From Nitrosotalea sp. (lineage in GTDB: Bacteria; Chloroflexota; Dormibacteria; Dormibacterales; Dormibacteraceae), in assembly GCA_035687505.1 (NCBI GenBank), contig DASRWV010000087.1, positions 7,204-71,203 on the forward strand: a stretch of 64,000 bases of DNA, read 5' to 3'. This document shows positions 4,862-57,861 of this stretch, in pieces (within the stretch, counting starts at the first letter, position 1; each line of letters begins with the position of its first letter). A program made the translations under genes and the position numbers. Below the pieces are notes generated by a model, which ran no database searches, was not told where the DNA came from, and worked only from the letters and a program-made list of their open reading frames with translations.

Positions 4862-4951
4862 TTTAAGCCTGATTCACGCCGCTCCTTCAGCGGAATATTT
4901 CTCCGCCCCACGCCTTCTGGTGTATGAGCAGGCCACTATTCAGATCGACTG

Positions 4952-5710
4952 ATGGAGCAACAAAAGGCAATGTCCTCTACACAACAAGGCAACCTCGAAG
5001 GGCAGAAAGCACTCGTGACCGGCGCCACGTCCGGCATTGGCCGTGCGATCGCCTTACAGCTCGCCCGCGACGGCGCCGAGGTAATCGTCCACGGCCGCGA
5101 CGCCGCCCGGGGCGTCGAGACTGTGAAAGCGATCGAGGCCGGCGGCGGTCGGGCGCGCTTTGTCGCAGCCGATCTCAGCGATCCAGCGGAGGTTCGACGC
5201 CTGGCCCAAGAAGCCGGCGACGTGGACATCCTGGTCAACAACGCGGGGTTTTCCTTGTTCGGCGCCACTGCAGGCCTCGAGGTCGAGAGGTTTGATGCGC
5301 TCTTTGCGAGCAACGTGCGGGCACCTTTCTTCCTTGTCGCCGCACTGGCGCCGGGGATGGCCGTCAGGGGCAAGGGCACCATCATCAACATGAGCAGCAT
5401 GGCCGGCCAGATTGGACTCGCCGGGGGCGCCGCTTACGGCGCGTCCAAGGCCGCTCTCGTGTCGATGACGCGCTCGTGTGCCGCGGAGTTCAGCCACAAC
5501 GGCGTTCGGGTGAATGCCGTCGCGGCCGGCCCGGTGTTCACCGAAGGCGCGGTACGCGATCGGACAGATGCGCTAGGAAAGACCACTTTGCTTGGACGGG
5601 GTGCGAACCCCGAGGAGATCGCAGAGGTAGTCGGATTCCTCACCTCGCCTCGTGCCAGCTATGTGACCGGCGCGATCGTCGCTGTCGACGGCGGTCGAAC
5701 TGCGATCTAG
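4952..5710 (+). CDS. SDR family oxidoreductase (FabG-like)
   Basis: ALVTGATSGIGRAIA (TGxxxGxG), NNAG, YGASKAAL (YxxxK). The alternative start ATG 4970 is equally plausible. Confidence 0.85.
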   Translation: MEQQKAMSSTQQGNLEGQKALVTGATSGIGRAIALQLARDGAEVIVHGRDAARGVETVKAIEAGGGRARFVAADLSDPAEVRRLAQEAGDVDILVNNAGFSLFGATAGLEVERFDALFASNVRAPFFLVAALAPGMAVRGKGTIINMSSMAGQIGLAGGAAYGASKAALVSMTRSCAAEFSHNGVRVNAVAAGPVFTEGAVRDRTDALGKTTLLGRGANPEEIAEVVGFLTSPRASYVTGAIVAVDGGRTAI

Positions 5711-8405: not shown

Positions 8406-8996
8406 TCAGCGAGTAGAGGAGCCGGCCAAACCCTCGAGCCCGCGAATCGACTCGATCATCCCGAGATGCCGGCTCAGGTGTTCGAGGTAGATGAGGATAT
8501 TGTCGAGTCTCGAGTCGCCATCCGGGTCATCCTTGGCAACCGCCAGCAGCAGATCATCCGGAATGAGCTCGATCGCCTCCTCCGCGTATGCGAAGGCGAG
8601 TCTGGCGTAGCCGATCACTTCCTTCTGATCAGGGAACCGGAGATCTTCCGCCGCCTCGTCAGTCATCTTGGTCCCCGTGTCGCGGAGCCCCATCGACTCG
8701 GAAGGGAAGGACCATCGTGCCGCCAGCGACTCTCGCTCCCAGACCTGCTTGCGAGGCTCGTGATCCAATGCCCTGTGGAAGTAGGACGCGATGACGTCGT
8801 CCCAGCGGGCGGCGTGCCACAGCTGCCAGGCGACCGAGTGCAGACTCGGACCGGCGCTCCACGCAAATTGCTCCGGAGAGAGCTCGTCCCCCGCCTTCAA
8901 CAACCGTTCGTGCGTGAGTCTGTAGAACCGTAAGAGTGTCTCTTTGAGCGAGCGTTGATGAGCGGCCACCAAGCACCAAGGTACTGCGCCCCTCAA
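8406..8996 (-). CDS. DinB-family (four-helix bundle) protein
   Basis: DinB_2-like pattern (SPEQFAW...SVAWQLWHAARWDD...LEHLSRHLGMI). Start (TTG 8996) uncertain. Confidence 0.6.
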   Translation of the reverse strand: MRGAVPWCLVAAHQRSLKETLLRFYRLTHERLLKAGDELSPEQFAWSAGPSLHSVAWQLWHAARWDDVIASYFHRALDHEPRKQVWERESLAARWSFPSESMGLRDTGTKMTDEAAEDLRFPDQKEVIGYARLAFAYAEEAIELIPDDLLLAVAKDDPDGDSRLDNILIYLEHLSRHLGMIESIRGLEGLAGSSTR

Positions 8997-31665: not shown

Positions 31666-31895
31666 AGCAGGAGCCGAAGAAGGCACCACCGGCTTTGCTC
31701 CTCCGGTGGGAGGCCCTCGACACCTGGAAGCAGCTGGCGATCTCTTTTCCTGTGTTTGCGATCGTCACGTTCCTGATCAATATCGGGCCCTTCTACCAGC
31801 CAGTGCCGCGCTCGATTCTCTACGGCCTGTTCGAGGGCGCCGTGTTGAGCGGGCTGTTGGCGGTAGTGTCCAGGAGCGAACGCGCGAAGCGCTGA
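31662..31895 (+). CDS. Small membrane protein (77 aa), translationally coupled to otsB
   Basis: ATGA overlap with the otsB stop. Two predicted TM segments. Confidence 0.5.
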   Translation: MKQEPKKAPPALLLRWEALDTWKQLAISFPVFAIVTFLINIGPFYQPVPRSILYGLFEGAVLSGLLAVVSRSERAKR

Positions 31896-31902
31896 GCTTT
31901 CT

Positions 31903-31974
31903 TTGGCGCCAATTACGTCGTTTTGGCGCCAAATCGACCTCTCGCTAGCGCCTACTCCGTGGTTTTGGCGCCAA
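31903..31974. repeat. Three copies of the 10-bp palindrome TTGGCGCCAA
   Basis: Copies at 31903-31912, 31923-31932 (12-bp palindrome TTTGGCGCCAAA) and 31965-31974. Spacings are 20 and 42 bp. The third copy lies in the last codons of otsA. Confidence 0.7.
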
Positions 31975-33541
31975 CTGCACCTAGTTCAGGGCGAGGCGAT
32001 TCAACCTGTAACCGGGCGCTCTGGCCCGGGCCGACCAGATCTCGCAGGTCCTGCACCTGGTTGCTGATCCACCGCGCGATATCGTTGGCGCGCACGACCT
32101 CCCGCGCGGCCTCGTTCCTGCGGTGACGCTCTTCAGGCGCCATCGTGAGGCCTGCATATAGCGCTGCGGCGGTGGCCTCGACGTCGAAGGGATTGATCGA
32201 CAGCACGTGCTCCCGCAGCTCCTCGTGTGCGCCGGCGTTCTCCGACAGCACGATCACCCCGTCGTGTTGGTTGACCAGCGCACCCTCTTTCACCACGAGA
32301 TTCAGCCCGTCGTAAACCGGGTTCACGAGCAGCACGTCGAAGTTCTTCAACGCGGCGATGGCTTTGCGCTCGCTTTCGGCGATCTCGAGCCGGATGGGCA
32401 CCCACTCGTACTCACCGAATTTCTGGCCGAACTCACTGTTGATCCGGCCCGCGGACTGGCGGATCTGGCGAAGGTAGCGGCTGTAAACCGCGACGTCCTG
32501 CCGCGACGGCTGTAGAAAGGCCCAGAACTGGACCTTGCCGCGCAGCTCCGGGTGATACCGCAGCAGCTTCTCGTACGCGATGAATCCCCGCACGATGTTT
32601 TTGGACGGATCTGTGCGGTCGATGCGCGCGATCAGATATTGAGGACGCCAATGCGAGAGGTCGTGCTCCTGCCGCTTGACGCCCCGCGATTCGGCAAGGC
32701 GCATGGTCCTCTGAACGTCGACCGAGATCGGGTAGTGCCGCGCGTAGATCACGCGTCCGCCCGACACCACTGCCCGCTCGCGCTCATCGACCTGAAGGCC
32801 TCCGTTCTCCTCGCAGGTCAACAGAAAGTTTCGGACGTCGAGGCTTGACTGGAAGCCGACGATGTCGCAACCAAGGATGCCCTCCAGGATCGCGTCACGC
32901 ATTTCCTTGGGCAGCACCTTCCAGTACTGAGGGGTCGGCCACGGCACGTGCACGAAGAGCTGGATCACCGATGTCGGGAGCTCCTTTCTCACCATCTGCG
33001 GCACGAGATACAGCTGGTAGTCGTGAACCAGGACCAATGGTCGTTTCGTTGCTGCGCGAGAGACTTCCACGACCCTGGCGGCCATCAGCCGGTTCACCTC
33101 GACGTATCCCTCTTTCCAGGCCTGGTGTATGCGATCGTCGATGACCGGCTCGTTGCCGAGGTCCCACAGGTAGTGCTGGATGAACCACAGCACCGGGTTG
33201 GCGATCACCCCGTAGTACATGTCGTACTGCTCGCGCGTCGGCGTTGCGTAATGGAGCCGGCCGTTCGAGTTCGGCAAGGTCACCGGCGCTGACACCCCGT
33301 TCTTTTGCGCCAGCGCGCGCTCCTCGTCGGTGCGCGCGCACGCCACCCAGTCCGCCCCTGTCGCGTCGGCCATCGTGAGCAGTGCTGTGATCACGCCACC
33401 GGCCCCGCGTGTGAACCCGCCGTCGGGCTTGGGCTCATGAGGCGCTCGGTTGCTGACCAGCACAGGGGAGTAGTCGGGGAGCGTGCGCGTCACGTACGCG
33501 CGCAGCGGTGACCCTCGGACTTCTTTTCGTCGGTCGCCCAA
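31952..33541 (-). CDS. otsA: Alpha,alpha-trehalose-phosphate synthase (GT20)
   Basis: PVLVSNRAP...GGVITAL..., LVHDYQLYLVP and other GT20 blocks. The TTG start is separated from the upstream stop codon by 2 nt. Confidence 0.9.
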   Translation of the reverse strand: MGDRRKEVRGSPLRAYVTRTLPDYSPVLVSNRAPHEPKPDGGFTRGAGGVITALLTMADATGADWVACARTDEERALAQKNGVSAPVTLPNSNGRLHYATPTREQYDMYYGVIANPVLWFIQHYLWDLGNEPVIDDRIHQAWKEGYVEVNRLMAARVVEVSRAATKRPLVLVHDYQLYLVPQMVRKELPTSVIQLFVHVPWPTPQYWKVLPKEMRDAILEGILGCDIVGFQSSLDVRNFLLTCEENGGLQVDERERAVVSGGRVIYARHYPISVDVQRTMRLAESRGVKRQEHDLSHWRPQYLIARIDRTDPSKNIVRGFIAYEKLLRYHPELRGKVQFWAFLQPSRQDVAVYSRYLRQIRQSAGRINSEFGQKFGEYEWVPIRLEIAESERKAIAALKNFDVLLVNPVYDGLNLVVKEGALVNQHDGVIVLSENAGAHEELREHVLSINPFDVEATAAALYAGLTMAPEERHRRNEAAREVVRANDIARWISNQVQDLRDLVGPGQSARLQVESPRPELGAVGAKTTE

Positions 33542-36009: not shown

Positions 36010-37716
36010 ATGACGCGATCCTCGAAGATTCGTTCTTTCGGCGCGGTCTTGTGCGCAGCTGCCATAGCAGCGGCGTGCGGCCCGACGTCCACACCTTCGG
36101 AAGCGCTCGCCGCAGACCAGACCTATCGCTTCGGGATAACGGACGACGTCACCAGCATCGACCCCGGCCACGTAATTACGGCGGTAGACATCGTCGTCAT
36201 CTCTGAAGTGTTCACAGGGCTGTACAAATTCGACAACAACCTGAAGATCCAGCCTTCCGGCGCCACGGCTTTGCCAACAATCTCGCCCGACGGCAAGACC
36301 TGGACGTTCAACCTTCGGAAGGACATGGTGTTCTCCAACGGCGACAAGATCACCTCGGCTGACTGGGTCTACAGCTGGACCCGGACGCTTCGGCTCAACG
36401 ACGCGTACGCGAGCAACCTCGAACCGATCATGGGTGCCACCGACGTCGAGGCAGGCACCGCAACCAAGATCGCCGGACTTTCCGCGCCAGACGCCTACAC
36501 GCTCGTCGCCAAGCTCGTTGCGCCAGCCGGTTACTGGCTGACCGAGCTCGCCATGCCTGTCGCGACCGAGGTCGTGGACCAGAAGGTCATCACCGCGGCT
36601 GGTGAAGACACATGGACCAACTCTCCCTCGACCTACATCGGCAGTGGCCCGTTCAAGATGACCCAGCGCACCCCCAAGGCCGCGATGGACTTTCAGCCGG
36701 TCAAGAACTGGTGGGGCGGCGACACCGGGAAGCTGACCGCTGTCCACATCGATATCGGCCTCGACGACGTCTCCCGGGTCAAGAAGTTCGAGTCCGGCGG
36801 CTACGAGGTAGTCGGTCCGGCCAACAGCCAGCCCGGGCCCGACGACGTCCTCCGCTACAGGAACGACCCGATCAAGAGCAAGCTGCTGAACGTTTATGTT
36901 GGCGGCCGCACAACGGCCGTCGGCTTCAACTTCACCAAGGGCCCCTTCGCCCAGAAGCCTGGGGTCACTCCGGGCGACTCGACCGTCAACGCCAGCGACC
37001 CCGGCCTGGACGGCCGGAGGGCGTTCTCCATGGCGATCGACCGCGTCCAACTCGCCGACATCGCTTGCGCACACGCAGTCACCTGCCAGCCGGCGTACGG
37101 CGGGCCCATTACCAAGGGCTTCATTGCCTACGCTGGTGATAACACTGACACCTACGCCAAGTTCGACGCAGGGGCGGCCAAGGCCCTCTACACGAAATGG
37201 GACCCGGACGGCAGCAAGGTCAAGGGCCTCGAGTACCGCTACAACACGAGCGCCGGCAATACAAAGATCGCGACGAACCTACAGGCTCAGTGGAAGCAGA
37301 ACCTGGGCGTTGACGTCAAGCTCGTCCCGTCTGACTTCCCGACGCTCGTCAAGGACCGCCAGGGCAAGAAGACGATTATCTTCCGCGAGAGCTGGGGCAT
37401 CGACTACGACCATCCCCAGGACTGGTTCGACAACCTGTTCATCTGCTCGCAGGCCAAGGTCGGACGCGGCAACAACGAGGGGTACTGCAACCCCGCGCTG
37501 GACGCCATCGTTTCGGCTGCCAACGCTAAGCCGATCACCGACCCCGCGACGGTCGCCGAGTACAACAAAGCGAGCAAGATGATCGTCAACGACGTAGTTT
37601 GGGCGACGCTCTTTTACGGCACGCAGCCGTACTTGACCCAGACCTATGTCAGGGGCACCGGCTACAACGGCCTCTACGACTACAACTGGGAGGGCATCCG
37701 GCTCCTCCAGCACTAA
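36010..37716 (+). CDS. ABC transporter substrate-binding protein, family 5 (peptide/nickel, DppA/OppA-like)
   Basis: Signal/lipoprotein-like N-terminus (AAIAAACG). Family-5 fold. SD GAGGAGG upstream. Confidence 0.85.
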   Translation: MTRSSKIRSFGAVLCAAAIAAACGPTSTPSEALAADQTYRFGITDDVTSIDPGHVITAVDIVVISEVFTGLYKFDNNLKIQPSGATALPTISPDGKTWTFNLRKDMVFSNGDKITSADWVYSWTRTLRLNDAYASNLEPIMGATDVEAGTATKIAGLSAPDAYTLVAKLVAPAGYWLTELAMPVATEVVDQKVITAAGEDTWTNSPSTYIGSGPFKMTQRTPKAAMDFQPVKNWWGGDTGKLTAVHIDIGLDDVSRVKKFESGGYEVVGPANSQPGPDDVLRYRNDPIKSKLLNVYVGGRTTAVGFNFTKGPFAQKPGVTPGDSTVNASDPGLDGRRAFSMAIDRVQLADIACAHAVTCQPAYGGPITKGFIAYAGDNTDTYAKFDAGAAKALYTKWDPDGSKVKGLEYRYNTSAGNTKIATNLQAQWKQNLGVDVKLVPSDFPTLVKDRQGKKTIIFRESWGIDYDHPQDWFDNLFICSQAKVGRGNNEGYCNPALDAIVSAANAKPITDPATVAEYNKASKMIVNDVVWATLFYGTQPYLTQTYVRGTGYNGLYDYNWEGIRLLQH

Positions 37717-39671: not shown

Positions 39672-40675
39672 CCGCTCCTCTGCTCGAGGTCAAGAATCTA
39701 ACTACGGAGTTCGGCAACTCAGCCGGGCGCGTGCGCGCCGTCGACGGGATCAGCTTCGACATGGACCGAGGCGAGACGCTGGGCATCGTCGGGGAGTCGG
39801 GCAGCGGCAAATCCATGACCGCGCTGTCGATCCTCAACCTCGTCCCCGAACCCGGGAAGATCACCGGCGGCAAGATCCTGTTCAAGAATCGCGACGTCGT
39901 GACAATGACGTCGGGCGAGCTGCTCGAGTATCGGGGCGGCGACGTGGCGATGATCTTCCAGGATCCGATGACCTCGCTCAACCCTGTCCTGCGCGTGGGT
40001 TTTCAGATCGAGGAAGCGATGCGTGCGCACTCGCGCTTCGACAAGAAGCAAGCACGTGACCGAGTGGTCCCTCTGCTGGAGCGCGTGCGCATACCGTCAC
40101 CGAAGCAGCGCGCACGCGACTTTCCGCACCAGTTCAGCGGAGGTATGCGCCAGCGCGCGATGATCGCCATGGGACTATCGAACGAGCCCTCTCTGCTCAT
40201 CGCTGACGAGCCAACTACGGCGCTCGACGTGACAGTGCAGGCGCAGATCCTGGAGCTCTTGAAGGATCTCAACCGCGAGTTGGGGACGGCCATTATCCTG
40301 ATCAGCCACAACGTCTCCGTGATCTCCAGCCTCTGCACCCGCGTCATGGTGATGTACGCCGGCCGGATCGTTGAGTCGGGGCCGACTCGGCAGGTGTTCG
40401 ATCATCCTCAGCACCCATACACGTGGTCGCTGCTGCGCTCGGTGCCGCGCCCCGACGAGCGCCGGCATGAGAGGCTGGTCAGCATCCAGGGCATGCCGCC
40501 GGACCTTTCTCGGCTGCCGACGGGCTGCACGTTCCACCCTCGCTGTGAGTTCAAGGTCGAACGGTGCACTCGCGAGGAGCCGCCGCTGGAGGAGGTCGGT
40601 CCTGCGCAGGACGCCCGTTGCTGGGTGCTGATGAAGAACGTCTCCCAAGAGTCGCGCGAAGCGGTCAAGAAATGA
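39584..40675 (+). CDS. ABC transporter ATP-binding protein (DppD/OppD-like)
   Basis: Walker A GESGSGKS, signature FSGGMRQR, Walker [14 protein letters not shown]-terminal oligopeptide domain. Start uncertain: ATG 39584 would overlap the permease gene by 88 nt. Confidence 0.85.
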
Positions 40676-41762: not shown

Positions 41763-43394
41763 CTAGTGCTTCAGAATCCGCGCGTTTGTCCATGAGAAGT
41801 CGTACAGCGCGTTGCCGCCCACGCCCAGCACGTACGAGTGGACGAGGTACTGCTGCACGCCGTAGAGGAGCGGCGCGTAGATCGAATCGTCGATCAGCAT
41901 GTGGCCCACAGTCTTGTAGTCGGCCAGGCCGTCTTTGAGCGGCCCAGCGTCGGCAAGGCTTACAAACTTGTCGACTCGGGGGTCTGAATAGCACGACCCC
42001 GATGACGGGGCCCCGGTGACGAACAGGTAATCGAACCAGTCCTGGGGATGGTCGTAGTCGGCGCTCCAGCTCTGGCGGAACATCGGGTACGCGCACTTGC
42101 CATTGCGGTTATCGAAGAAAGTCTTCCGATCGACGTCCACGCAGGTGACCGTGACGCCGAGATTCTTTTTCCACTGCGCCGAAAGGTTGTCGCATACCGC
42201 TTTGTTGAATGGGTTTGTGTCATAGCTGTACGTGAGCCCTTTCACTTTCGTGCCGTTCGGGTCCCACGCCAGGTATTGCGTCTTCGCCGCGGCCGCGTCG
42301 AACTTTGCGTTGCTGTCGGCATCGTCGCCGACATAGCCCTGTAGTCCCTTGCTGATCAACCCGCCGGTCGCGAGGGCACACGCCGTCTTCTGGTTGCAGA
42401 GCGCGTCGACAAGCGCGTTGCGGTCGATAGCGGTGCTGAACGCGTGGCGCCCCGGCCGCCCCGCGTCGATGTCGGCGAACGGTCCGCTGCGCAGGTTGAA
42501 GCCGACCCAGAAGGTGAGGCCGATCGGCACGAGGTTGAGCTGGCTCTTGAGGGTGGCATCCGAGGTGTACCGCGTCGCCGCGGCCGGAGGCAGTCCCTGG
42601 CGTCCGTAACCGACGAGGCTGAACGCGCCGGACTCGTACTGGGACACCTGGGCGACAGGGTCCGCGATGACTTCCAGGTGCACCCGCGTCAGCTTGCCGG
42701 TCGACCCCCCGTACCAATCGGGGACCGGCTGGAAGTCCATCGACTGGCCCGGTGCGCGAGCGGTCATGCGAAAAGGTCCGCTTCCGATGAGCGTCTCGGG
42801 TTTGCTGAACCATGCGTTCTCACCCGCTGACGCGACGACTTTCTGGTCGACCACCCAGAAAGGCCACAGACCCAAAAGGGTCGTGAAATAGCCCGCGCGC
42901 TTGGTCAGGGTGGCGGTGAAGGTGTAATCGTCTGTCTTGACGAGCCCGCTCATCTGGCTGGCCCGCCCCGACGCGACCGGGTCATAGCCGGCGACGATGT
43001 TGAACAGCCCCGCGTAGTCGCCCTGCTTTGCAGCTGCGCGATTCCAGCTGTAGATGAAGTCGTCCGCAGTGATGGCGTCGCCGTTGGAGAAGTGCGCGTT
43101 GCGACGCAGATGAAAGGTATAGGTGCGGCCGTCGTCGGACATCGCCGGTGGGTCAGTGGCCAGGTCTGGTAGCACGTGCAGCTGGCTGTCGAATTTGTAG
43201 AGGCCCGAGAAGACGTTGCGGAAGATGTCCACCTCCGCCGCGGTCGAGATGAGCGCGGGATCGAGGTCGGAGATGTCCGTTGCTATGGGAAAGCTCAGCG
43301 TCTGGTCCGCCGCCAGCGGCTCCGGAGGTGGTGGGGAGCTGGTCGGTTTGCCGACGATGAGCACGAGCAGGAGCGCGATCAGCGCGATTGCCAC
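41763..43394 (-). CDS. Second family-5 ABC substrate-binding protein, TM-anchored (true start probably upstream of 43394)
   Basis: Paralog of the 36010 protein (PLAADQTLSFPIATDISDLDPA vs ALAADQTYRFGITDDVTSIDPG). The GTG 43394 start would leave the signal anchor without a charged n-region. Confidence 0.8.
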   Translation of the reverse strand: MAIALIALLLVLIVGKPTSSPPPPEPLAADQTLSFPIATDISDLDPALISTAAEVDIFRNVFSGLYKFDSQLHVLPDLATDPPAMSDDGRTYTFHLRRNAHFSNGDAITADDFIYSWNRAAAKQGDYAGLFNIVAGYDPVASGRASQMSGLVKTDDYTFTATLTKRAGYFTTLLGLWPFWVVDQKVVASAGENAWFSKPETLIGSGPFRMTARAPGQSMDFQPVPDWYGGSTGKLTRVHLEVIADPVAQVSQYESGAFSLVGYGRQGLPPAAATRYTSDATLKSQLNLVPIGLTFWVGFNLRSGPFADIDAGRPGRHAFSTAIDRNALVDALCNQKTACALATGGLISKGLQGYVGDDADSNAKFDAAAAKTQYLAWDPNGTKVKGLTYSYDTNPFNKAVCDNLSAQWKKNLGVTVTCVDVDRKTFFDNRNGKCAYPMFRQSWSADYDHPQDWFDYLFVTGAPSSGSCYSDPRVDKFVSLADAGPLKDGLADYKTVGHMLIDDSIYAPLLYGVQQYLVHSYVLGVGGNALYDFSWTNARILKH

Positions 43395-44861: not shown

Positions 44862-44938
44862 GCCGGCGTAGCTCAGCTTGGCAGAGCAACGGTCTTTTAA
44901 ACCGATGGTCCAGGGTTCAAATCCCTGCGCCGGCACCA
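44862..44938 (+). tRNA. tRNA-Lys (anticodon UUU), CCA encoded
   Basis: Acceptor GCCGGCG/CGCCGGC, D-arm GCTC..GAGC, anticodon loop CTTTTAA, T-arm CAGGG-TTCAAAT-CCCTG, discriminator A, then CCA. One A-A mismatch at position 27:43. Confidence 0.9.
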
Positions 44939-47187: not shown

Positions 47188-47252
47188 CCCGTTGGTTCAA
47201 AAGGGGTGGAATTTCCGTCGCGATTGGGCCCGTTGGCGCCAACGGGGTGGAA
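47188..47252. repeat. Two 24-nt direct repeats 41 bp apart; the second contains the 18-bp palindrome CCCGTTGGCGCCAACGGG
   Basis: CCCGTTGGTTCAAAAGGGGTGGAA (47188-47211) and CCCGTTGGCGCCAACGGGGTGGAA (47229-47252) are 20/24 identical. TTGGCGCCAA occurs again at 47233-47242. Confidence 0.65.
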
Positions 47253-47262
47253 AAACTGAGGC

Positions 47263-52772: not shown

Positions 52773-52773
<1 letters not shown>

Positions 52774-53135
52774 TGGCCGCTGTGCAAACCGCCCGGGAAC
52801 GAACATCCCCCGCCATCGCGACCACACCGCCGTGGGTCTGGGTAGTGCTTGTGTTCGGGGCGGGGGTGATGGTCGCTTGGGCCTGGTTCATCCTCGGTTT
52901 TCTTTCCGAGCCGTCAGCAGTAGGCCGGATACGCGTCGTCCTCCTCACGTCCATTGCCTACTCGGCTGGTTCCGCCGTGGTCGGCGTGATCGGCGCGTTC
53001 GGTCTGATCAGGCGCCGACGGTGGGCTGGCACCGTGTCGGTGATCGCCTCGGCCGCCATGACGCTCACCATCGTCGGCGCCATCGCGGGGATTCCCGCTC
53101 TGCTCGGTCTGATGTCGCCTCGCCGATCTCCATAG
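52773..53135 (+). CDS. Small membrane protein (120 aa)
   Basis: TAATG overlap with the ligA stop. Three to four hydrophobic segments. Confidence 0.5.
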
Positions 53136-53140
53136 AGGTG

Positions 53141-53334
53141 AGTGTCCTGCCCCGGAAGGTCCTTGCGTCTTCATCGGCCCAGGCGGCCGGGCGCCTGCGG
53201 CGCTGAAGCCGGCGTCGCCTCCTGCGCGCGCTCAGTCACGCATCTAAGCGATGCGCTCCCTCGCGTGCTCGTCGTCTCCTTGGCTCCGGCCGCCGGTGCC
53301 GCGAATACGCTGCGGACCTCCGGTGCAGGACACT
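53141..53334 (+). repeat. Structured ~190-nt repeat element, copy A (candidate cis-regulatory leader, ncRNA or MITE-like)
   Basis: Long imperfect inverted-repeat arms closed by AGTGTCCTGC/GCAGGACACT. It fills the gap before gatC. The paralogous copy is at 56872-57063. Confidence 0.75.
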
Positions 53335-53341
53335 TAGCCCA

Positions 53342-53635
53342 ATGCCGCTTTCGCGTGATGAGGTCCGCCATGTCGCCATGCTCGCGCGTCTTGGCCTCGA
53401 GCCCGGCGACGAGGAGTTCTATGCCGAGCAGCTGAGCGGCATCCTCGCGCACATCGACCGGCTGCAGCAGCTGGACACCGACTCGATCCCGCCGACCGCG
53501 CAGGTGGTCGAGGTCGCCAACACATTGCGCGAGGACGTGCCGCGCCCTGGTCTGAGCCAGGCCGAGGCGCTCGCCAACGCGCCCGCGGCGGTGGACGGAT
53601 TCTTCCGCGTGCCCTCGATCCAGGAGGAGGCGTGA
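53342..53635 (+). CDS. gatC: Asp/Glu-tRNA(Asn/Gln) amidotransferase subunit C
   Basis: MPLSRDEVRHVAMLARLGL...QLDTD is typical of GatC. 4-nt overlap with gatA. Confidence 0.9.
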   Translation: MPLSRDEVRHVAMLARLGLEPGDEEFYAEQLSGILAHIDRLQQLDTDSIPPTAQVVEVANTLREDVPRPGLSQAEALANAPAAVDGFFRVPSIQEEA

Positions 53636-55095
53636 CCAACCTCACCGAGCTGACGATCAGGGAGGCGGCGAAGCAACTGCGCCTTCACTCGTTCTCGGCG
53701 GCCGAGCTGGTGACGGCGCACATAGACCAGATCGAGAAGCTCGATCGTCGCGTGAAAGCCTTCCTTCGGTTCACCCCCGAGCTGTGGGAGAAGCAGGCGG
53801 AAGAAGCCGACGCGCGGATCAACAACGGTGACATGGGTCCGCTCGTCGGAATCCCGATGGCCGTCAAAGACGTGCTGTGCGTGCGTGGTGTGGAGACGAC
53901 GGCAGGCTCGCAGATCCTCCGTGGCTTCAAACCGCCGTACACCGGTACCGCGGTCTCGAGACTCTTCGATGCCGGCGCTGTGATGTTGGGCGTCACGAAC
54001 TGCGACGAGTTCGCGATGGGCAGCTCGACGGAGAACTCCGGCTATCACCCGACGCACAACCCCTGGGATCTCGACCGGGTCCCCGGAGGCAGCTCGGGCG
54101 GCAGCGCGGCTGCGGTGGCGTCCGGCGAAGCGATGATCGCGTTGGGCACGGACACCGGCGGTTCGATCCGCCAGCCGGCCGCCCTGTGCGGCGTCGTGGG
54201 CATGAAGCCGACGTACGGGCGCGTCAGCCGGTATGGCCTCATCGCGTTCGCGTCGAGTCTCGACCAGATCGGTCCATTTACTCGATCCGTCGAAGACGCG
54301 GCGATCGTGCTGGAGGCGATGGCCGGCCACGATCCCCTCGACGCGACCAGCTCCAACCGCCCCAACGATGTGCTCCGCGACCTGGAGACGGGCGTGAAGG
54401 GCATGAGACTCGGCGTGCCGCGCGAGTACTACCACGTCGAGGGCATCGAGCCGGCGGTGAAGGCTGCAGTCGACAAGGCGATCACGTCTTTTCGCAACGC
54501 CGGCGCGGAGATCGTCGACGTCACGCTGCCGCATACGGACTACGGGCTCGCCGCGTACTACATCATCGCGCCGGCCGAGTGCTCGTCCAACCTCGCGCGC
54601 TTTGACGGGGTGCGATATGGAATGTCCGTGGACGACGCGCAGAACATCACCGAGGCTTACATGCGCACTCGGCGCAAGGGCTTTGGCACCGAGGTCAGGC
54701 GGCGCGTGATGCTCGGCACCTACGCCTTGTCGAGCGGCTACTACGACGCCTACTACCTGAAGGCCCAGAAAGTGCGGACGCTGATCAAGCGGGACTTCGA
54801 CCTCGCGTTCGAGAAATGCGACGCGATCATCAGCGCAACCTCACCCACGGTCGCCTTTCCGATCGGGTCCAAGACGCAGGACCCTCTATCCATGTACCTC
54901 TGCGACGTGCTCACTCTTGGCGGCAACCTCGCCGGGCTGCCGGGGATCAGCGTGCCGTGCGGAATGTCAGAGGACTTGCTGCCGATCGGATTGCAGATCA
55001 TGGCTCCGCAGTGGCGTGAAGACGTTGCGCTGCGCGTCGCGCGCGCCTATGAGGTGGCCAGCGGCGTGAAGGCGGAGGTGGCGCCTGTTGTCTAG
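53632..55095 (+). CDS. gatA: Asp/Glu-tRNA(Asn/Gln) amidotransferase subunit A
   Basis: Amidase signature [12 protein letters not shown]...[10 protein letters not shown]. Confidence 0.95.
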
Positions 55096-56497
55096 CGCTC
55101 CGTGGGAAGTGGTGATTGGCATGGAGGTGCACGTCCAGCCGCGCACGCGCTCGAAAATGTTTTGTGGCTGCGCAGTCGGTCAGCTCGGCGACCCGCCCAA
55201 CTCCAACGTGTGCGAGGTCTGCCTGGGCATGCCCGGCACCTTGCCGGTCATCAACAAGGCAGCGGTCGAGGCATGCCTCAAGACCGCGCTGGCGCTCAAC
55301 TGCGAGATTCCGCGCCACACCAAGTTCGACCGCAAGAACTACATGTATCCCGACCTGCCGAAGGGCTACCAGATCAGCCAGTACGACCTGCCGATGAGCA
55401 TCAGCGGCTATCTCGAGCTCGACGGCCGCCGTGTGCGCGTCAGGCGCGTACATCTCGAGGAGGACACGGGCAAGCTCATCCACGCGGGAGACAAGCTGCA
55501 CCAGGCGCGGGAATCCTTCGTCGACCTGAACCGAGCAGGGGTGCCTTTGATGGAGATCGTCACGGAGCCGGACCTGCGCTCTGCCGACGAGGCGCGCGAC
55601 TACGCGGTCGCCCTGCGCACGCTGCTCCGGACGATCGGCGCCTCCGAGGCGGAGATGGAGAAGGGCCAGCTGAGGGCGGAGCCGAACATCTCGCTACGCC
55701 GCGCGGGGACGGAGGAGCTGGGCGTGAAGACGGAGCTCAAGAACATCAACTCGTTCCGCGCCCTTCACCGCGCCATCAGTTTCGAGGTGGCGCGCCAGAC
55801 CGAGGTTCTGGAGTCGGGTGGCAAGGTGCTGCAGGAAACGCGCGGCTGGTCGGACGCCGAGCAGCGCACTTTTTCGCAGCGCAGCAAGGAATTCGCCGAG
55901 GACTACCGCTACTTTCCCGAGCCCGACCTGCCTCCGCTGGAGATCGACGCGGCCTGGATCGAAGATCTTCGCCGCGCCCTGCCCGAGCTGCCCGGCGCGC
56001 GCCGGGGGCGGCTGGTCTCGCAGTACGCGCTGCCGGCGGCCGACGCTGTGCTGATCGCCGCCGACCGCGACCTCGCCGACCTCTTCGAGGCAGCTGTCGC
56101 GGCTGGGGCGGAGGCCAAGCCAGTGGCCAACTGGATCATCGGAGAGGTCGCGCCAACCGGCAAGATCCCGACTCCGGAGCACCTTGCAGAGCTCGTGAAG
56201 CTCGTCACGTCCGGGAACGTCACGCGTGACCAGGCGCGCGAGGTGCTCCTCGAGTCGGTCGAGACAGGCCTCTCACCGACCAAGATCGTCGCCGAGCACG
56301 GGTACGCACAGGTCAGTGACGAGTCCACCCTGCAGGATGAGGTCGAGGCCGTGATGGCGGCCAACCCGAGGGCGGTCGAGGACTACAGGGCGGGCAAGAA
56401 GCAGGCTCTCGGTGCGCTCATGGCCGAGCTCCGGAAGCGGACGCCGCAGGCCAACCCCAAGGTCGCGAGCGAACTCCTCCTCCGGTTACTGGGCTAG
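55088..56497 (+). CDS. gatB: Asp/Glu-tRNA(Asn/Gln) amidotransferase subunit B
   Basis: [12 protein letters not shown]...KMFCGC...[15 protein letters not shown]. The TTG start overlaps gatA by 8 nt. Confidence 0.95.
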
Positions 56498-56851
56498 GGG
56501 GCCACCCGGCCGGCGGGAGAGCCACGTGCTGTACACGAACAGACCAGCCCCGATCAGGTAGGTCGCCAAAGCGACGGCGACGAGGGCCCCGCCCACGAAC
56601 TCGGAGACGAAAGTGGTGAGGCCGAGCGCGACTATCGAAGCTCCCAGGCCGATCGCGGTCAAGCCCAAGAGGCGGACCACCCCCGGCGTAACTCGCGTGA
56701 TCGGACCGAGCATCCAGTCTCTGAACCAGCCCGGCAAGCTGCCCTGGACGACCAGGTACAGGCCGATTCCGAGCAAAGGCCCGCCAACCGCATAGGAAAT
56801 TCCAAGCACCACCCACCCCACGGCGGGCCATTTTAGCCAGAAACACCCCAT
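56486..56851 (-). CDS. Small membrane protein (121 aa)
   Basis: Four hydrophobic segments. The 3' end overlaps gatB by 12 nt, tail to tail. Confidence 0.5.
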
Positions 56852-56871
56852 TTTTGCTCTCCAGCTAGCCC

Positions 56872-57063
56872 AGTGTCCAGCCCCGGAATTCCTTGCGTCT
56901 TCGTCGGCCCGGGCGACCGGGCGCCTTTGGCGCTGAAGCCTGCGTCAAGGGGCCCGGCGCTGCGGAGTCACGCATCACGGATGCGCTCCTCCTTGCGCCA
57001 CCCTTTCCTTGGCTCCGGCCGCCAGTGCCGCGAATACGCTGCGGACCTCCGGTGCTGGACACT
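56872..57063 (+). repeat. Structured ~190-nt repeat element, copy B
   Basis: Same orientation as copy A. The 5' arm is 67/76 identical and the 3' arm 56/58 identical. Closed by AGTGTCCAGC/GCTGGACACT. Confidence 0.75.
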
Positions 57064-57069
57064 TGTCCC

Positions 57070-57861
57070 GTGCCCCTGCCGCCTGACCTCCACGTGCACA
57101 CCGAATGGTCGTGGGACGCTGCCCACGGCTCGATGGAGCGCAGCTGCGAGCGGGCGCTCCAGCTCGGCCTGCCCGGGATCGCCTTCACGGAGCACGCCGA
57201 CTTCGTCGTGATCCACGAGGGCCAGCACGGCCTCGATGTCGCGGGGTACCTCCAGGCGGTCGAGCAATGCCGGGCCCGGTTCAAGAACCTGCGCATCTTT
57301 TCCGGTGTCGAGCTCGGTGAGCCGCACTGGTTTCCCGACGAGACTGCAGCCGTCCTGGCCGCGGGCAAGCTGGATCGCGTGCTCGGCTCGATCCACTGTG
57401 TGCACCTGGACGGCAAGCCGGTCGACGCAAGCCAGTTTCGCGATCTGCCGCCTTCGGCATTTGGCGGCGCGGTGAGGGAGTTTTTCCGCGAGACGCTCGC
57501 CCTGGTCGAGAGCTCCCAGCAGTTCGAGGCGCTGGCGCATCTCGACTACCCCAAGCGCTACTGGCTGGAAGGCCAGGCTCCATATCGCGAAGAGGACTAC
57601 GAAGAAGACCTGCGCGCGATCCTCGTCGCCGCTGCGAAGCGAGGCCTGGTCCTCGAGGTGAACACGACCCGCGGCCGCACGCTGTGTCCCGACATCAAGG
57701 TGGTGCGCTGGTGGCACGAGGTGGGGGGGAAGGCCGTGCAGTACGGGAGCGACGCCCACCAGCCGGACAAGGTGGCCGAGGGCTTTCTGACGGCGACACA
57801 GATGGTCGAGTCGGTGGGGTTCAAGCCGGCGCGCGACCCCCTGGGGTTATGGCACCGCTGA
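57070..57861 (+). CDS. PHP-domain phosphoesterase (histidinol-phosphatase-like family)
   Basis: PPDLHVHTEWSWDA, FTEHAD, GVELG, GSIH and GSDAH metal-ligand blocks. Start is GTG 57070 or GTG 57052. The track start 56893 reads through repeat copy B. Confidence 0.8.
   Translation: MPLPPDLHVHTEWSWDAAHGSMERSCERALQLGLPGIAFTEHADFVVIHEGQHGLDVAGYLQAVEQCRARFKNLRIFSGVELGEPHWFPDETAAVLAAGKLDRVLGSIHCVHLDGKPVDASQFRDLPPSAFGGAVREFFRETLALVESSQQFEALAHLDYPKRYWLEGQAPYREEDYEEDLRAILVAAAKRGLVLEVNTTRGRTLCPDIKVVRWWHEVGGKAVQYGSDAHQPDKVAEGFLTATQMVESVGFKPARDPLGLWHR

Follow-up and report, generated by a model that had tools for sequence, protein, structure and literature searches.

attC sites are structure-defined palindromes with free stem sequence, which fill the space between the stop codon of one open reading frame (ORF) and the start codon of the next. 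Mycobacterial interspersed repetitive units (MIRUs) are intergenic repeats at start codons in operons; they carry a small ORF that overlaps the flanking stop and start, and translational coupling survives the insertion (PMC12548453). REPINs, hairpin-forming repeats that show the same compensatory pattern as the one described below, are thought to move as hairpins (PMC3116915), and MITEs (miniature transposable elements with inverted repeats) of the ERIC and Correia types have known effects on mRNA processing (PMC10969869). In this work we analysed a stretch of 64,000 nucleotides (nt) from Nitrosotalea sp. (lineage Chloroflexota, Dormibacteria, Dormibacteraceae; assembly GCA_035687505.1, contig DASRWV010000087.1, positions 7,204 to 71,203 of the forward strand), hereafter the window, which carries two copies of a structured element of about 190 nt, one before gatC and one before a gene for a PHP-domain phosphoesterase. 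An initial annotation, made from the sequence of the window, had taken them for 5' leaders of operons. Both copies are members of a repeat family, and neither is a conserved regulator of its operon. The family is, in our view probably, a palindromic non-coding mobile family that sits at gene starts, and its sense copies would preserve the translational coupling of the genes they separate, with a MIRU-like effect.

Results

A repeat family at about 110 gene junctions

The two copies of the window have the same orientation.

53141..53334, plus strand: copy A, full-length 194-nt family member with one of two centre variants (GCCTCCTGCGCGCGCTC...), between a 120-aa ORF and gatC
56872..57063, plus strand: copy B, full-length 192-nt family member with the other centre variant (AAGGGG...CCCTTT), in a divergent intergenic region

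Their similarity is far above chance (blastn E = 5e-47), and the arm-by-arm alignment from which copy B had first been recognized was reproduced exactly, with 67/76 identical columns and one gap for the 5' arms (56872-56946 vs 53141-53216) and 56/58 identical for the 3' arms (57006-57063 vs 53277-53334), around a diverged centre (42/64 identical, 9 gap columns). Both copies are predicted to fold stably (-118.4 kcal/mol with z -7.3 for copy A and -110.5 kcal/mol with z -6.5 for copy B), and for each of them 0/200 shuffles were as stable. There is no third copy within the 64-kb window, as judged by blastn at word size 7 and by the covariance model R1 described below.

An exact 22-mer from the 3' arm gave no match in the genome collection, and in metagenomes it was found at two loci of unrelated context, one upstream of recF and the other between a thioredoxin-fold (SCO-like) gene and a ctaA-like gene. 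A degenerate pattern was then composed of the blocks conserved in these four copies (two from the window, two from metagenomes), and it matched at least 119 genome loci, nearly all of them with titles that read Dormibacterota or 'Chloroflexi CF_' soil metagenome-assembled genomes (MAGs); every locus matched by the pattern was confirmed by nhmmer. The covariance model R1 recovers 121 full copies with scores of 84-208 bits, distributed over about 110 different gene junctions. Copy B scores 190.5 bits over model positions 1-193 (E 2e-39) and copy A 167.2 bits (E 3e-34), these R1 E-values being rough. Scored on their reverse strand, the sites of the full copies reach only 29-67 bits, and the orientation of the element is therefore well defined. 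Full copies are 171-255 nt long, with modal lengths of 194, 233 and 236 nt and clusters at 194, 209-218 and 231-236 nt, and the main size classes (194, 209, 215, 218, 233, 236) are separated by multiples of 3. The comparative DNA consists throughout of MAG fragments, and the copies were gathered with a pattern derived from the conserved core.

No match to the element was found by blastn in the plasmid collection, scans of viral contigs returned one chance match only, and Rfam 15 gave no match to it at gathering thresholds across the whole window, where the sole match is one tRNA, and nothing credible at E up to 10 across 52900-57300. The family is apparently undescribed and apparently restricted to Candidatus Dormibacterota, in line with the origin of the closest named homologues of the window GatC, which are Candidatus Dormibacteraeota or Dormibacteraceae MAG proteins with 89-99% identity. 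Copies identical to A occur on three soil-metagenome contigs (L001-L003) that carry the same two elements and an identical GatC. Some element-bearing contigs are binned in other phyla, namely L025, L026 and L111 (Verrucomicrobiia), L093 and L097 (the archaeal Nitrosopolaris) and L027, L049, L055, L076, L119 and L125 (Eisenbacteria), and all these off-phylum bins come from one soil MAG project. L025, the only such contig so compared, has the same flanking gene pair as the 'Chloroflexi'-labelled L067, and our suspicion is that the binning is wrong rather than that the element has spread across phyla.

Also seen was a related second family with members of about 179 nt (L017:6628-6806, L086:6963-7141, L086:5044-5222, L027:3907-4085 and L123:3275-3452). 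It has the rod architecture of the main family and has in common with it the submotifs ATCTTCG:CGAATCT and the apical CACGCRTC...GAYGCG hairpin, while the remainder differs; its members score 30-84 bits with R1, and the L017 copy folds at -118.6 kcal/mol (z -9.2).

A palindrome whose arms covary

The family's consensus fold (ribosum-scored) is rod-shaped, with a single side hairpin (GCGCC-NNN-GGCGC) and, at the apex, the hairpin CACGCATC...GATGCG. The default RNAalifold structure mis-paired the inner part (GGCGC with GCGTC), and the ribosum structure was preferred, its side hairpin being backed by compensated changes. The corresponding parts of copy B are the following, and the apical hairpin, already pointed out in the initial annotation, can be read directly from the sequence.

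56872..56894, plus strand: 5' strand of the terminal helix (AGTGTCCAGCCCCGGAATTCCTT), the hypervariable yet complementary part of the family
56921..56933, plus strand: side hairpin GCGCC-TTT-GGCGC (helix 5)
56971..56985, plus strand: apical hairpin CGCATC-ACG-GATGCG (helix 10)
57041..57063, plus strand: 3' strand of the terminal helix (...GGACCTCCGGTGCTGGACACT), its final T 6 nt before GTG 57070

Across the 45 short copies, 91.9% of the cells are paired, and 34 of the 67 pairs (158 cells) change on both sides, a value matched in 0/500 shuffles and to be compared with 10-16 pairs in slid controls. Helix 1 (alignment columns 1-23 with 182-205) has 90% of its cells paired and 14 of its 20 pairs changing on both sides. 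The two hairpins are each 99% paired, with 3/5 compensated pairs in helix 5 (GCGGC/GCCGC, GTGCC/GGCAC, CCGCC/GGCGG) and 4/6 in helix 10 (GCAGC/GCTGC, GCACC/GGTGC, GCGTC/GACGC). The inner 140 nt or so are near-invariant across MAGs of many species, and the outer 25 bp or so are hypervariable but complementary. The ends read AGTG...CACT in 76/121 copies, and the exceptions are still complementary (GGTG..CACC, AGGA..TCCT), as are the flanking -1:+1 positions in 51/65 copies. No other end sequence than AGTG/CACT is common, and variability is highest in the 20 bp or so that follow the ends. The change from T53148:A53327 in copy A to A56879:T57056 in copy B, from which compensatory evolution had been proposed, is real and is one of many; the same closing-helix pair is T:A, A:T, C:G or G:C in other copies, and T:A in the orthologue of copy B on contig L127. 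The claim that the element is a structured repeat is in this way confirmed by the folds of both copies and by a covarying family.

The covariation does not in itself demonstrate selection on RNA pairing. Once one conserved G:U pair is excluded, G:U cells are not more frequent than A:C mismatches (109 versus 239), and this is likewise the case in sense, antisense and divergent copies, so that the comparison of G:U with A:C as a test for RNA-level selection is negative or reversed. Many compensated changes are transversion flips (C:G to G:C, A:T to T:A). Where different MAGs have a copy at one and the same locus, these copies differ by 31 compensated versus 8 uncompensated double changes, and by 100 single changes that break or restore a pair against only 9 that go via G:U. 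The pattern of mismatches is strand-asymmetric whatever the local direction of transcription. From these observations we infer that the palindrome is probably maintained on DNA, by arm-to-arm correction or as a requirement for mobilization, rather than by selection on an RNA helix. Motifs resembling hammerhead and twister ribozymes (CUGAAGCC, GAAU) had been spotted by eye; they have no Rfam support and were dropped.

Filled and empty sites

The copies are insertions, some MAGs having one and others none at junctions whose synteny is otherwise kept. Clustering of the flanking proteins yielded 20 types of junction at which one MAG carries the element and another lacks it; where synteny is clear, most of the empty ones are gaps measuring -4 to 24 nt. 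Neither L126 nor L128 has an element at the gatC site, 10 nt separating the upstream ORF from gatC, and L129 (3254-3506) has there a longer member of a different subfamily. What L127 has at this site is a decayed remnant of which only the 3' arm is left (4931-4993, ...GCCGCCAATACGCGGCAGACCTCCTGTGCACGAAACT), and copies can therefore erode in place. An element is likewise missing from the PHP site of L126, L128 and L129, the sequence there being CTAGCCTTGTCxGGTG (for the site of copy B the restored sequence would be CTAGCCTTGTCC), and L127 has one at the position that copy B has in the window, a copy (8524-8718) that is 95% identical to B. The empty PHP site includes TGTCC, identical to element positions 3-7.

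At one junction the elements of L072 (3779-3971) and L113 (1963-2155) differ in position and orientation, the L113 insertion lying within the last codons of the upstream gene. Together with the different occupants of the gatC site in the window and in L129, this suggests that one short target region may be hit repeatedly and independently. No consistent target duplication (TA, AG, TAG or CTAG) was found in flank logos or in filled/empty comparisons; at most one T might be duplicated. At many insertion points (L023, L047, L067, L126; window 56865-56871) a CTAG or TAG is found at the point itself or a few bases away, with no consistent rule. CTAG is generally under-represented in bacterial genomes.

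Placement at gene starts

Genes were called with our own ORF caller, which uses codon log-odds scoring with the elements masked. The 111 classified junctions that carry an element comprise 74 co-directional (55 with the element in sense, 19 in antisense), 35 divergent and 2 convergent ones, and the element-free junctions 395, 108 and 129, respectively; convergent junctions are depleted (p = 9e-9) and the sense orientation is favoured (p = 3e-5). An expectation weighted by the number of starts, 71.7/39.3/0 for co-directional, divergent and convergent junctions, is close to the observed 74/35/2, and the simplest description is therefore one target per gene start.

A gene start is found at an element end in 109 of the 111 classified junctions, and the 3' end faces it in 55/74 co-directional junctions. 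Whether copies consistently precede starts in one orientation, a check proposed in the initial annotation, is thus answered largely in the affirmative. The copies take up the space from a gene boundary to a start codon. Starts lie 1-8 nt past the 3' end in seven copies for which they could be read from orthologous empty sites. On the other side, the upstream gene has its stop codon at -2 to 0 from the 5' end in 34/59 copies whose 5' end faces a gene end, and 30 of the 55 sense copies have a stop codon that crosses or adjoins the insertion point. Excision in silico leaves a residual gap with a median of 11 nt, versus 13 nt at ordinary co-directional junctions, and regenerates TGATG, TAGATG, TAGTG and TAAGTG junctions, TGATG being the one expected at the L040-type junction.

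A frame that bridges the element in sense copies

The frame that begins at the GTG of the terminal AGTG is open through the element in 86 of the 121 copies, and its behaviour depends on context. In sense co-directional copies it is open in 44/55, and 41/55 have an element length of 2 mod 3 (p = 7e-10, tested against one third). In antisense co-directional copies the reverse-strand frame is closed in 16/19, and the length is 2 mod 3 in 4/19 (Fisher p = 7e-5 versus sense). Divergent copies have the frame open in 22/35 and a length of 2 mod 3 in 18/35. The sense frame ends most often at +2 from the 3' end of the element, on a stop made of the final T and two flanking bases (n=18), then at +5 (n=8), -4 (n=6), +8 (n=2) and +4 (n=2), and in 36/55 sense copies it ends beside the downstream start, overlapping or abutting it.

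A protein-coding reading of this frame was ruled out by the lack of codon periodicity (entropy by codon position 0.61/0.52/0.61) and of any Pfam match for its peptide. The initial annotation had argued against a coding function from the unrelated peptides of the two window ORFs, and its point that the peptide is not conserved holds; to be set against that argument, an open and in-phase GTG frame is a family feature of sense copies. The bridging frame would then matter as a frame and not as a protein.

The two window copies

The surroundings of the two copies are as follows.

53133..53135, plus strand: stop codon TAG that ends the 120-aa ORF (52773-53135) upstream of copy A, from which it is 5 nt away
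53142..53435, plus strand: GTG-started frame from position 2 of copy A, open through the element, length 194 = 2 mod 3
53342..53635, plus strand: gatC (Pfam GatC), ATG 7 nt past copy A
56486..56851, minus strand: divergent 121-aa gene with a GGAGAG of its own upstream; its ATG (56851) and the 5' end of copy B are 20 nt apart
56873..57211, plus strand: GTG-started frame from position 2 of copy B, open through the element, out of phase (192 = 0 mod 3)
57070..57861, plus strand: PHP-domain phosphoesterase gene, GTG 57070 6 nt past copy B

Copy A is a sense copy inside the co-directional string ligA, 120-aa ORF, A, gatCAB, and is not at an operon 5' end. It is an imperfect example of bridging: its frame misses a stop at the 3' boundary, because the junction T|TA reads TTA, and runs 94 nt into gatC, out of frame. 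The AGGTG between the TAG stop and copy A forms, with the G of the stop, a Shine-Dalgarno-like GAGGTG. In copy B, which lies between divergent genes, the bridging frame has no role, and the GTG frame, out of phase and with no co-directional gene upstream, is probably not used. The two candidate PHP starts named in the initial annotation, GTG 57070 and GTG 57052 inside the 3' arm, are both present; the public gene call begins at 57052, in frame, and the orthologous empty sites keep the same GTG as 57070, pointing to the latter as the start. Outside the element, copy B is flanked by about 26 nt of spacer in total, versus 50-120 nt at orthologous empty divergent sites.

Other repeats of the window

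A small repeat around the palindrome TTGGCGCCAA lies at 31865-31985 and 47190-47260 of the window, and also at L127:4900-4990 and L024:245-301. Three exact copies of TTGGCGCCAA fall within 31903-31974 and one at 47233, and with one mismatch allowed the window has 10 matches against 2.4 expected. The repeat is often found beside GGAATT(C)C, and the unit at 31865 starts with AGTGTCCAGG, like the 5' end of the main element; on L127 it stands in place of the 5' half of the element at the gatC site. The segments 36331-37443 and 42018-43091 are inverted, diverged paralogues, 80-88% complementary over seeds of 49-66 nt and about 4.6-6.7 kb apart, and a further internal repeat is found at 39949 and 40986. 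One more feature of the window was annotated.

44862-44935: single tRNA gene; at gathering thresholds Rfam matches nothing else in the window

Discussion

A coupling-preserving insertion

This work describes a palindromic family that inserts at gene starts, and the properties of its sense copies suggest how a 190-nt insertion could be accommodated between coupled genes. In sense orientation the element would be translationally transparent. Its first bases, A or AG, would complete the stop codon with which the upstream gene ends (T|AG, TA|A or TG|A), and the GTG at positions 2-4 would overlap or abut this completed stop; a frame of about 64 codons would then stay open across the element, whose length is 2 mod 3, and the final T with two displaced target bases would rebuild a stop (T|GA, T|AA or T|AG) that overlaps or abuts the next start, as TGATG, TAATG, TAGTG or TAG-ATG. 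Termination-reinitiation coupling would in this way be relayed over the insertion, as proposed for mycobacterial MIRUs. The complementarity of the arms would more likely be kept on DNA, or be needed by a structure-recognizing mobilizing enzyme, than serve an RNA function.

Several points weigh against this interpretation. Translation of the bridging frame is a prediction, and the clean bridging arrangement is absent from both window copies. The consensus itself is open from position 2, so that part of the 'open' signal is inherited, and it is the dependence on context that is the real evidence. The bridging frame cannot act in the 35 divergent and 19 antisense copies, for which another explanation, such as an internal promoter or leaderless starts, is needed; an outward promoter is possible at divergent sites, though nothing in the sequence supports it. 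The coupling model gives no reason why the core is so strongly conserved, and this conservation is ascribed here to a putative mobilization function. Finally, the gene calls are home-made, with starts biased to the first start after the element, and the core-derived pattern and the use of MAG fragments may have biased the sampling of subfamilies.

The family shows that an insertion of 190 nt is tolerable inside tightly coupled operons of genomes with little intergenic space. In practical terms, the two window "leaders" are repeats, and to annotate them as riboswitch-like regulators would be misplaced. Called ORFs already reach into the element, as with the PHP gene from GTG 57052, and a systematic N-terminal over-extension in MAG annotations is likely; the covariance model R1 can be used to mask the copies, and the element could serve as a marker of cross-phylum MAG contamination.

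How the element moves

The coupling model says little about mobility. One proposal, which we regard as possible but on the doubtful side, is that the element moves like a REPIN or an attC site, a single-copy host enzyme (HUH/Y1 transposases and tyrosine recombinases being candidates) moving a folded single-stranded DNA recognized by its shape. The arms would stay complementary because the folded DNA is the substrate, and several observations agree with this: complementarity is kept while the sequence is free, compensated transversion flips are many and G:T intermediates few, same-locus double changes are mostly compensated (31 versus 8), mismatches are strand-asymmetric independently of the local transcription direction, and no duplication accompanies insertion. 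However, the enzyme is hypothetical, no RAYT or other candidate having been searched for or found, no conserved tetranucleotide flanks the copies, and REPINs have conserved ends around a variable spacer, the reverse of the present family, and occur in extragenic space generally, not specifically at starts. The proposal concerns mobility only and is compatible with the coupling model. We would also put forward, tentatively but with somewhat more conviction, that the family represents a new kind of mobile element, in which a folded core, rather than the ends, would be recognized by a structure-specific enzyme, which would home to the few bases before starts, often within the preceding stop codon, and whose built-in start, frame and stop would hide it from coupling. 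A self-insulating palindromic element would in that case have colonized a whole uncultured phylum. If start-proximal homing and structure-based mobilization are true, a new recombination or transposition activity and a natural relay module for translational coupling become testable.

It is unlikely that the family consists of classical MITEs, that is, deletion derivatives of an insertion sequence with a DDE transposase, mobilized in trans via their terminal inverted repeats and affecting expression only incidentally. The size of the element, its non-coding nature, its dispersal in many copies, its terminal inverted repeats, its stable hairpin transcript and its insertion polymorphism all fit the description of such elements (PMC10969869). 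Nevertheless, the filled/empty comparisons reveal no target-site duplication, the sequence is GC-rich and not AT-rich, and copies are positioned precisely, either within a stop codon or a few nt ahead of a start. The terminal repeats are the most variable part, with changes possible even in the 4-nt ends, and the interior is conserved, the opposite of what is expected for a transposase that binds the ends. Nor was a longer element or autonomous partner with the same ends found in the 0.96 Mb of host DNA around the loci analysed.

Regulatory interpretations

We consider it equally improbable that the element is a portable expression cassette, kept because an outward promoter, with or without a ribosome-binding site, drives the adjacent gene. 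In favour of a cassette, the element is near-absent at convergent junctions and enriched at divergent ones, where it makes up nearly the whole intergenic region, its 3' end is preferentially turned towards a start, and the 3' arm contains a candidate promoter (TTGGCT, 17 nt, GAATMT) in which TTGGCT is invariant and its spacing to GAAT constant. But a consensus scan finds no such promoter in either window copy, the only match being on the minus strand and overlapping the ATG of the divergent gene, and the second hexamer is GAATAC in both window copies, without the final T. The gene at the 5' end has no mirrored promoter, the divergent enrichment is wholly accounted for by the counts of starts, and the orthologous empty sites function with gaps of 10-50 nt. 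An outward promoter or leaderless -10 in the GACACT end was also considered and rejected, having no consensus-scan support and not fitting start distances of 1-4 nt. A split ribosome-binding site, in which the hairpin would bring an upstream Shine-Dalgarno sequence near the start, was not adopted; the enrichment is weak, with an upstream Shine-Dalgarno in 14/36 sense copies (39%) versus 26% of ordinary tight junctions and 19% of random coding 16-mers.

Least probable by far is the interpretation closest to the initial annotation, a cis-regulatory structured RNA, leader- or riboswitch-like, whose closing helix gates the start codon of the operon under selection on RNA pairing: the strong covariation, the aptamer-like layout of a conserved core and a variable closing helix, the 3' end 1-8 nt from start codons, the G-rich 3' strand that could mask ribosome binding and the 3:1 bias for sense orientation all speak for it, but the 65 genes whose starts directly follow the 3' end have no common theme (they match 94 Pfam families, none matched by more than four genes), the antisense orientation of 19 copies and the position of 35 others between divergent genes do not suit a leader, close relatives lack the element at both window sites, none of the context classes has more G:U than A:C, a switch is hard to imagine in a rod of -110 to -118 kcal/mol, and Rfam gives no match even at E up to 10. 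These downstream genes are mostly housekeeping ones, such as those for Mur ligase, GcpE, GlpX, GltX, penicillin-binding proteins, enolase, triosephosphate isomerase and serine hydroxymethyltransferase. As the family occupies about 110 unrelated junctions, its sites can be empty in relatives and copy A lies between genes of a string, the two window copies are not the 5' leaders of operons for which they had been taken.

Comparison with known systems

The coupling model rests on a likeness to MIRUs, which are also mobile-looking repeats at starts with an internal ORF that overlaps or abuts the flanking stop and start. Unlike the present family, MIRUs are units of 40-100 bp, often in tandem, are not long palindromes and belong to Mycobacterium, whereas here the repeat is a single rod-forming palindrome of 190-236 nt with covarying arms and a conserved core, found in Dormibacterota; no sequence relationship to MIRUs was detected, and a repeat scan found no array at either window site. 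The family would thus join MIRUs as an independent coupling-preserving repeat, here combined with a palindrome kept complementary by abundant compensated changes.

With attC sites the family has in common a structure-defined palindrome with free stem sequence between one stop and the next start. attC sites, however, stand in cassette arrays beside an integrase and move with a gene, whereas here the syntenic housekeeping neighbours are unchanged between filled and empty sites. The REPIN/RAYT system likewise comprises non-autonomous, long-lived hairpin repeats with compensatory changes, no autonomous copy nearby and no classical duplication (PMC3116915); REPINs are about 70-110 nt long, with conserved ends and an extragenic scatter, in contrast with the variable ends, conserved centre and start-proximal position found here. 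ERIC and Correia MITEs are imperfect palindromes of 100-200 nt, co-transcribed with adjacent genes, present in either orientation and with size variants due to internal insertions (PMC10969869), and in these respects they resemble the present element. They differ from it by their TA-type duplications, their conserved terminal repeats and the location of many of them in 3' regions, the present family having no duplication and only 2/111 copies at convergent junctions. In conclusion, the family is best filed as MITE- or REPIN-like in form and MIRU-like in effect.

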